Shown here piece by piece: positions 317 to 1,287 of a DNA stretch of 64,000 nucleotides. How positions within the stretch are numbered: position 1 is the first letter of the stretch; every line of letters begins with the position of its first letter. The position numbers and the translations under genes were made by a program. Below the pieces are notes generated by a model. The model worked only from the letters and a program-made list of their open reading frames with translations, ran no database searches and was not told where the DNA came from. The DNA is taken from the NCBI RefSeq assembly GCF_016903815.1, contig NZ_CP069973.1; one strand, 5' to 3'. This stretch comes from Escherichia coli (GTDB lineage: Bacteria > Pseudomonadota > Gammaproteobacteria > Enterobacterales > Enterobacteriaceae).

Positions 317-529
317 ATGACCCGTAATCGTGCTGAACGTCGCCATCATATGGCGCGATTAAAAAAAATCCGCTGCCGTTATCGCACTGCAGGCGATGGA
401 AGCAAAAAAGCATCAGGTATTTGCTTTCGTACTCCCTGTATTTGTTCTTGTTGGATGTGTGGGCATCGACGCTATCATAATGGTCCCCGCGTATCGGAAA
501 TTCGTGCAAAAGCACGCTATGCGAATTAA
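317..529 (+). CDS. hypothetical small basic Cys/His-rich protein (70 aa)
   Basis: ORF with GGAG 7 nt upstream of ATG; motif CICSCWMCGH; no family recognised. Confidence 0.35.
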   Translation: MTRNRAERRHHMARLKKIRCRYRTAGDGSKKASGICFRTPCICSCWMCGHRRYHNGPRVSEIRAKARYAN

Positions 530-590: not shown

Positions 591-869
591 ATGTCCACGC
601 TTAATACGCGTAAAGATAGGGATCGTAATGGTAAAGCGAAGCCACATAATCATTCAGGGATCCCAACACTTACAGGTAAATGGCGTCACCCTTCAATGGA
701 TTGTTGGGTAAACTACAGTACACCGGGCGATCATGAATGGAAGCGGCTCTATACTACGCTTCGCCGTCGCGCAGATGATCGACGCCAATGTCATCGGGTA
801 ATGCAGGGGGATGATCCAGAAGGAATCGTCTGGTTCCCGGACTGTTATCCACAAATTTACTACTACTAA
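591..869 (+). CDS. hypothetical protein (92 aa)
   Basis: ORF with AGGAG 7 nt upstream of ATG; no family recognised. Confidence 0.35.
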   Translation: MSTLNTRKDRDRNGKAKPHNHSGIPTLTGKWRHPSMDCWVNYSTPGDHEWKRLYTTLRRRADDRRQCHRVMQGDDPEGIVWFPDCYPQIYYY

Positions 870-1287
870 CAATTAAAGACCGGTTGGTGCGGCACTGACC
901 GGTCAGTTATGAATGGTAGATTTCACCTTAAACCCTGGTGCGGTAAAGCTGCTGACTTTTTCGGGTACACCATCCTGATGAAGCAAATGAACACCCAATC
1001 AAAAAAATATTCTTGAATATAAAATATTTATAGCACCCATAATTCATCCTTATTATTTGTTGTTTCTTTTCTGTAGATGTGTCCCCGCTTAATTAAAAGT
1101 AATAAACCATCCTGGGTTATTACTAAACCATTTTTGAGTAACAATTGAAATAACTGCAACTGTTACATTATCTTTGGATGCCGTCTCGCAAAAACAAAAC
1201 GACATGCAAAAATCCGCTTTTTTTAAATGATTTTTCGGCGTAATTTTCGCACATACATTAATGAGTAATATATGTAAGGTGGTGGTA

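Follow-up and report, generated by a model that had tools for sequence, protein, structure and literature searches.

In the fabY–yiiE–fdhE region of the Escherichia coli chromosome, a perfect palindrome downstream of a 92-aa ORF is the 3' arm of a 27-nt stem-loop that probably acts as a transcript-end hairpin. On the minus strand this hairpin would be a modest terminator, and on the plus strand a 3' stem-loop that stabilizes the transcript or terminates weakly. In the model that we favor, the stem-loop would mark the point at which two convergent transcription units share their 3' end, and the ancestral order would have been the 92-aa ORF (plus strand), 8 nt, the hairpin, 31 nt, and the stop codon of a 179-aa gene (minus strand). 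We infer that transcripts end or are stabilized at the hairpin; the structure itself, its conservation, the layout of the genes around it and the relics of these genes are direct observations. The hairpin is an ordinary feature of a known kind that was previously unannotated, and it takes the place of a candidate regulator site that had been proposed for the palindrome. Table 1 lists the features, with coordinates referring to the window, the whole 64,000-nt stretch of DNA that was analyzed.

Table 1. Features at and around the stem-loop (window coordinates)
Feature	Position	Strand	Remarks
70-aa ORF	317..529	+	Upstream of the 92-aa ORF; Arg/Cys/His-rich orphan
92-aa ORF	591..869	+	AGGAG 8 nt before the ATG; 'hypothetical protein' in RefSeq
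U-rich tail UUUAAUUGUUAGUAG	863..877	-	Directly after the stem; overlaps the stop codon of the 92-aa ORF
Stem-loop, 27 nt	878..904		Palindrome is the 3' arm; folds on both strands
Upstream GACCGGT	878..884	+	Outer part of the 5' arm; direct repeat, spaced 19 nt, with 897-903
Perfect 14-bp palindrome ACTGACCGGTCAGT	894..907		Comprises the 3' arm and 3 adjacent bases; includes the 12-mer 895-906
Degraded 5' part of the 179-aa gene	916..1040	-	Relic start codon at 1038-1040
Weak terminator-like site	940..960	+	GCGGTAAAGCTGC then TGACTTTTTC; inside the relic of the 179-aa gene; from the consensus scan

The palindrome is one arm of a stem-loop

The initial annotation had described a self-complementary 12-mer, CTGACCGGTCAG, at positions 895–906 just 3' of the 92-aa ORF, and a second GACCGGT copy 18 nt upstream that was said to start at 879. 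The 12-mer lies exactly at this position and extends to a perfect 14-bp palindrome, and the ORF does end shortly before it, with the stop codon TAA at 867–869. The second GACCGGT copy exists as well, but it had been placed one position too far downstream: it starts at 878, 8 nt past the stop codon, and the spacing of the two copies from start to start is 19 nt and not 18.

Each GACCGGT copy makes up the outer part of one arm of a 12-bp stem-loop, in which positions 878–889 pair with 893–904 around the loop CGG. In the plus-strand RNA, GACCGGUUGGUG-CGG-CACUGACCGGUC, there are 12 pairs, two of which are G·U (885·897 and 886·896), and the hairpin alone has a folding energy of −17.8 kcal/mol (z = −4.2), with none of 200 shuffled sequences folding as well. 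The minus-strand RNA has a shorter stem because these G·U pairs turn into A·C mismatches, leaving 7 pairs, a 2×2 internal loop and 3 further pairs (−13.2 kcal/mol). RNA folding of the region, which had been recommended as a check, predicted the stem-loop with high confidence on both strands. The plus strand of the window contains 14 places with a 30-nt fold of −17.5 kcal/mol or lower, 878–904 among them, and the 30-nt fold of this site ranks within the top 0.03% of the window on the plus strand and the top 0.4% on the minus strand. The stem-loop is a non-random feature, half of which had been seen in the initial annotation. Its structure rests on direct reading and RNAfold; a repeat search of the window did not list the inverted repeat at 878–904, and the covariance models of Rfam 15 gave nothing at or near 878–906 even at E ≤ 10. 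Rfam returned five weak matches within positions 1–2200, all of them elsewhere and far below gathering scores.

Taken alone, the perfect 12/14-bp palindrome is unremarkable and incidental. Just six matched positions are required for a self-complementary 12-mer, and perfect 12-mer palindromes are not enriched in the window, which has 17 of them compared with 15.6 expected for random sequence and 20.5 ± 5 in Markov-1 simulations; perfect 14-mer palindromes number five. GACCGGT showed no enrichment in the window either (9 matches versus 5.9 expected, a count reached in 17 of 100 shuffles). As for the concern that the motif might be a common background word, it applies to the class, as palindromes of this length occur at chance frequency, and not to the exact 12-mer, which has a single occurrence in the 64 kb. 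Since ACCGGT, a self-complementary hexamer, is part of the stem, either arm reads as a local palindrome and the hexamer is present twice. The methodological lesson is that a stem with such a hexamer will always resemble a palindrome with a nearby repeat.

The hairpin is conserved and the dyad is not

A search of 5,426 complete E. coli genomes found positions 872–1010 (139 nt) as one copy per genome in 5,371 of them, and the 48 nt around the hairpin (868–915) in 5,306. The genome-wide search for other copies, another of the suggested checks, revealed one locus only and no second copy: at E ≤ 10 the 48-nt query matched one place per genome, the single exception being a genome with a tandem duplication. 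In strain BDSF8-3 (locus L018, 601–648) we observed a 20-nt tandem duplication, with GACCGGTTGGTGGCAGTACT present twice and followed by GACCGGTC, which is consistent with slippage between the direct GACCGGT repeats in the two arms.

Three groups of sequences were distinguished. The palindrome is perfect in about 309 of ∼5,300 genomes (at least 99% identical over 868–915). In about 958 genomes a 1-nt deletion, giving CTGACCGGTCGT, breaks the dyad, as we read directly in A26 and in an ST131 isolate, and about 4,039 genomes are K-12-like, with CTGACCGGTCTG and the loop GCAG. All three groups retain the hairpin, but only the first has the perfect dyad; the perfect symmetry of the palindrome is a lineage-specific accident.

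This pattern bears on the dimeric-regulator site put forward in the initial annotation. In such a reading, the dyad TGACCGGTCA would be the operator of a dimeric DNA-binding protein, for example the neighboring NadS-type helix-turn-helix (HTH) protein or the ribbon-helix-helix proteins YiiE/YiiF. The 14-bp dyad is indeed perfect in the window strain, and genes for three small DNA-binding proteins lie within 1.1 kb. However, symmetry beyond the 8-mer GACCGGTC is not conserved, 12-mer palindromes are no more frequent than expected by chance, and an operator would be present as a single copy per genome. Moreover, the site lies between the 3' ends of genes and not in a promoter; the yiiE start codon is about 380 nt further downstream, and an operon resembling toxin-antitoxin modules starts about 1.2 kb upstream. 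ACCGGT was absent upstream of this operon (in a 20-kb comparison locus) and from the upstream regions of yiiE and yiiF. We therefore withdraw the regulator site and consider an operator at this position highly improbable.

Variation within the stem is limited. Ten distinct variants have standard pairs in 99.2% of the pair cells; three stem pairs vary, each by a transition from G-C to G·U on the plus strand, and a C-to-A mismatch is present in one strain (C899A in strain 550). Compensatory double changes were not found among the ten variants, which differ too little for shuffles to be informative, and covariation gives the hairpin no support. As the proteins of both flanking genes are confined to Escherichia, no deeper alignment is possible. 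When comparing the window with the K-12 haplotype, we found one difference in the 24 stem positions, while the alignable left flank is 76–77% identical by blastn and the right flank about 82–83%, so that the flanks are ∼17–24% diverged. A binomial estimate for conservation of the stem above its flanks (P about 0.05) is suggestive only. Between strain WL297 and locus L007 the hairpin is conserved no better than its immediate flanks.

In most E. coli the hairpin lies between relics of two convergent genes

Bases 1–2150 of the window are 100% identical to many complete genomes. In the annotation of one of these, AR_0067, the order is fabY, a pseudogene, a transposase gene, an alpha/beta hydrolase gene, a gene for a 103-aa hypothetical protein, nadS (HTH protein), the genes for the 70-aa and 92-aa hypothetical proteins, yiiE and a yiiF-like gene, followed by fdhE-fdoIHG on the other strand. 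The 103-aa protein has a weak RelE-like match below the Pfam cut-off. Neither the 70-aa nor the 92-aa ORF, both orphans, matches a family in Pfam or NCBIfam. Homologues of the 92-aa ORF fall into 15 clusters, all at least 66% identical, of which the few with a named organism are from E. coli, and the ORF is present in 1,270 of the 5,426 complete E. coli genomes.

The 70-aa ORF is probably co-transcribed with the 92-aa ORF. The two are adjacent, small and Arg/Cys/His-rich, have good Shine-Dalgarno sites, and lie downstream of the weakly RelE-like/NadS pair, which resembles a toxin-antitoxin module. An imperfect inverted repeat at 271–311 (19 nt, 79% complementary) surrounds the ribosome-binding site of the 70-aa ORF, and another at 549–604 (20 nt, 80%) surrounds the start codon of the 92-aa ORF; hence the translation starts of both small ORFs may be sequestered.

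On the other side of the hairpin, strain WL297 has an intact minus-strand gene of 179 aa between the hairpin and yiiE (L003, 2088–2627). The encoded protein has hydrophobic segments at its N and C termini and is a predicted membrane protein without a family match in Pfam or NCBIfam. At least 80% of the intact gene is covered in just 3 of the 5,426 complete E. coli genomes; strain 2013C-4282, like WL297, has the intact gene. Among 5.8 billion proteins the 179-aa protein is represented by three clusters, at 98, 84 and 78% identity. Every locus recovered for these clusters has the same hairpin between the 179-aa gene and a convergent ORF of 92 or 102 aa. In WL297 (L003), L007 and L013 the intact gene converges on the hairpin, with its stop codon 31 nt from the stem. 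The convergent stop codons are separated by 67 nt in WL297 and by 37 nt in L007. In loci of the L007 type, the plus-strand ORF has lost its TAA, reads into the stem and ends at the UGA in CACUGACC.

The window and K-12 contain only the beginning of this gene. Using tblastn, the N-terminal ∼42 residues aligned to both, with stop codons and frameshifts, and a ∼410-bp deletion joins the relic at 916–1040 to a point 11 nt past the hairpin, with the same endpoints in the window and in K-12. The deletion is common to the window and K-12 haplotypes, yet the proteins encoded by the intact alleles are up to 22% different. The 92-aa ORF has decayed as well in K-12-like haplotypes, where it is reduced to a remnant of 47–120 nt: the left flank in K-12 is a relic, 76–77% identical, of the last ∼47 nt of the ORF, and other K-12-like strains have a deletion from about position 370 (within the 70-aa ORF) to about 761–765 (within the 92-aa ORF). 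Judged from these alignments, the hairpin in most E. coli stands between the wrecks of two genes that it once separated. In almost every E. coli, including K-12, the supposedly intergenic DNA that separates the island from yiiE consists of relics of two convergent orphan genes around the hairpin, and a map of these relics is useful for annotating the variable region and for work on the uncharacterized yiiE/yiiF or the 70/92-aa ORFs.

K-12 MG1655 has an unannotated 35-codon ORF (MVANINLIKQ...TMSK; L002, 4852–4959; NC_000913.3, about 4,078,851–4,078,958), with GGAGG about 7 nt before the ATG and the TAA just before the hairpin. The 3' end of this ORF overlaps the relic of the 92-aa ORF in another frame, and its product has no Pfam match. 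The non-coding stretch from the hairpin to yiiE (870–1287 versus L002 4950–5291) has about 60–83% identity, depending on the alignment, with indels, compared with 217 of 219 identical positions in the yiiE coding sequence between the two main haplotypes. By these alignments, the divergence of the stretch is far above what is usual within E. coli. The upstream regions of yiiE and the yiiF-like gene are duplicated (1009–1227 versus 1519–1666, including a 79-nt block with 81% identity) and have the exact 16-mer ATTCTTGAATATAAAA in common. From these duplicated upstream regions, the two ribbon-helix-helix genes can be read as a tandem duplication that also took in the promoter and the beginning of the neighboring minus-strand gene.

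Differing neighbors between strains would also be explained if the hairpin were a cassette boundary or the target of a site-specific recombinase or transposase. With megablast, homology between K-12 and the window appears to start exactly at the hairpin, and the right-hand deletion begins 11 nt past it. An IS1 element has inserted 18 nt to the left of the hairpin in strain EE72d (L049; window 852–860, in the last codons of the 92-aa ORF), and the slippage duplication lies inside the hairpin. We rejected a boundary at the hairpin once a sensitive alignment extended the homology leftward into the 76–77% identical relic of the 3' end of the 92-aa ORF. The left-hand deletion (about 370 to about 761–765) is far from the hairpin, and IS1 is flanked by a 9-bp target duplication of its own, CAAATTTAC, which is located outside the stem. 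Furthermore, the hairpin is single-copy and always at the same locus. All 28 matches in metagenome contigs were at this locus, a search of phages did not find the hairpin, and the four 'plasmid' matches are records of 1.0–4.9 Mb and hence mislabeled chromosomal sequence. No integrase or recombinase gene adjoins the hairpin; the closest gene for a transposase lies ∼2.5 kb from it, at the opposite end of the island. A role in recombination is thus highly improbable.

Terminator features differ between the strands

A stable G+C-rich stem-loop, as in intrinsic terminators, is present on both strands, and it follows a stop codon at a distance of 8 nt on the plus strand and 31 nt on the minus strand (in WL297, L007 and L013). 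A U-tract after the stem is absent from the plus strand. Every variant has a U-rich tail on the minus strand, and in the loci with an intact 179-aa gene this tail is kept as UUUAAUUUCU, UUUACUUGGU or UUUAAUUAUU, the first of these following the stem in WL297.

We scored the hairpin with the d'Aubenton-Carafa discriminant and ViennaRNA energies (modern parameters); the values are approximate. In the window, the minus-strand tail UUUAAUUGUU has a score of T = 4.10, resulting in a marginal d of +4.8, and the minus-strand d was +6.0 in WL297, +2.5 in L007 and −5.4 in K-12. The plus-strand tail in the window, AGUUAUGAAU, scores 2.17 (d = −13.7), and d on this strand ranged from −13.7 to −5.5 across loci, being negative because no U-tract follows the stem. 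Sites with d ≥ 4.8 number 12–15 per strand in the window versus 5 in one shuffled strand, suggesting that roughly a third of the sites at the minus-strand score could be due to chance; for this reason, the minus-strand terminator call is marginal. A simple consensus terminator scan made no call at 878–904 on either strand, since the plus strand has no T-run and the minus-strand loop is too long for its rules. The scan identified 4 terminator-like sites in positions 1–2200, compared with 2.4 expected. One of them, on the plus strand at 940–952, is weak at best and was rejected as the terminator that the ORFs would use. By comparison with the WL297 coding sequence, the T-run of this site stems from Lys codons in the defunct minus-strand gene, and K-12 does not conserve the stem.

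These features suggest a separate role for each strand. On the minus strand, the G+C-rich 7-bp stem followed by UUUAAUU would be built like a modest intrinsic (Rho-independent) terminator, serving the 179-aa gene. For a plus-strand transcript of the 70/92-aa ORFs, the hairpin would mainly be a 3' stem-loop protecting against 3'-5' exonucleases, with weak non-canonical termination at most; the role on this strand is taken as mainly protective because there is a 12-bp stem and no U-tract. In the window strain and in K-12, just the plus-strand role could still matter, the minus-strand gene having been gutted by the ∼410-bp deletion. The suggestion in the initial annotation that the palindrome is part of a terminator hairpin was therefore right in part. 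The strong, conserved stem-loop to which the palindrome contributes the 3' arm does lie directly past a stop codon, but the U-rich tail is on the opposite strand, whose gene is deleted here, and the strand of the ORF has no U-tract. A search for published E. coli 3' ends at K-12 positions 40789xx/40790xx, yiiE and fabY gave none in the supplementary text of two 3'-end-mapping papers, which was possibly incomplete, and nothing relevant was found in the literature on yiiE/yiiF.

The main rival to a transcript-end hairpin is that the hairpin once terminated the 179-aa gene and, in the window strain and most E. coli, is now neutral DNA, still present only because it is short and by chance escaped the deletions. 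In favor of a leftover, both flanking genes have decayed in most genomes, with the 179-aa gene intact in 3 of 5,426 and the 92-aa ORF a short remnant in K-12-like haplotypes. Stem-weakening variants are present in single strains (C to T in L016, C to A in L017), L018 tolerates its 20-nt duplication, and neither covariation nor the comparison of WL297 with L007 points to selection on the stem. On the other hand, a single stem position differs between haplotypes with much more diverged flanks, and every observed transition preserves pairing on the plus strand. A plus-strand role remains plausible because in 1,270 genomes the 92-aa ORF, with a good ribosome-binding site, looks intact and still stops 8 nt ahead of the hairpin. 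We therefore regard a neutral leftover as rather unlikely, and favor the transcript-end hairpin.

A stronger version of this function is that the hairpin is actively maintained in >5,300 genomes despite the decay of both genes and has a present-day function of its own, which we think doubtful. If it were true, the hairpin could be an insulator against read-through from the variable island on the fabY side into yiiE–yiiF. Alternatively, a small transcript or peptide that lacks annotation could end at the hairpin, such as the K-12 35-codon ORF with its GGAGG.

Comparison with known systems

Like operators of HTH and ribbon-helix-helix proteins, the palindrome at 894–907 is a perfect 14-bp dyad near genes for three small DNA-binding proteins. 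It differs from them in that the dyad is not conserved, is not associated with a promoter, has no additional copies and belongs to a class occurring at chance frequency.

REP/BIME elements in E. coli have a described role in stabilizing mRNA against 3'-5' exonucleases. The stem-loop at 878–904 is similar to such 3' stem-loops in being a stable hairpin (−17.8 kcal/mol) located just after a stop codon and lacking a U-tract. Unlike REP/BIME and other dispersed palindromes, which have many copies per genome, it is present once per genome; to our knowledge it does not resemble the REP consensus, and the homologous position in K-12 has no repeat_region feature.

Compared with the bidirectional terminators of convergent genes, the stem-loop at 878–904 is asymmetric. 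The U-rich tail is present on the minus strand only, where the loop region is longer than usual and the score marginal; the plus strand has the stronger stem (12 versus 7+3 pairs, via G·U) and no U-tract. What it shares with these terminators is a G+C-rich stem-loop in the short gap between convergent stop codons and an A-rich tract on one side that is a U-tract for the opposite strand.
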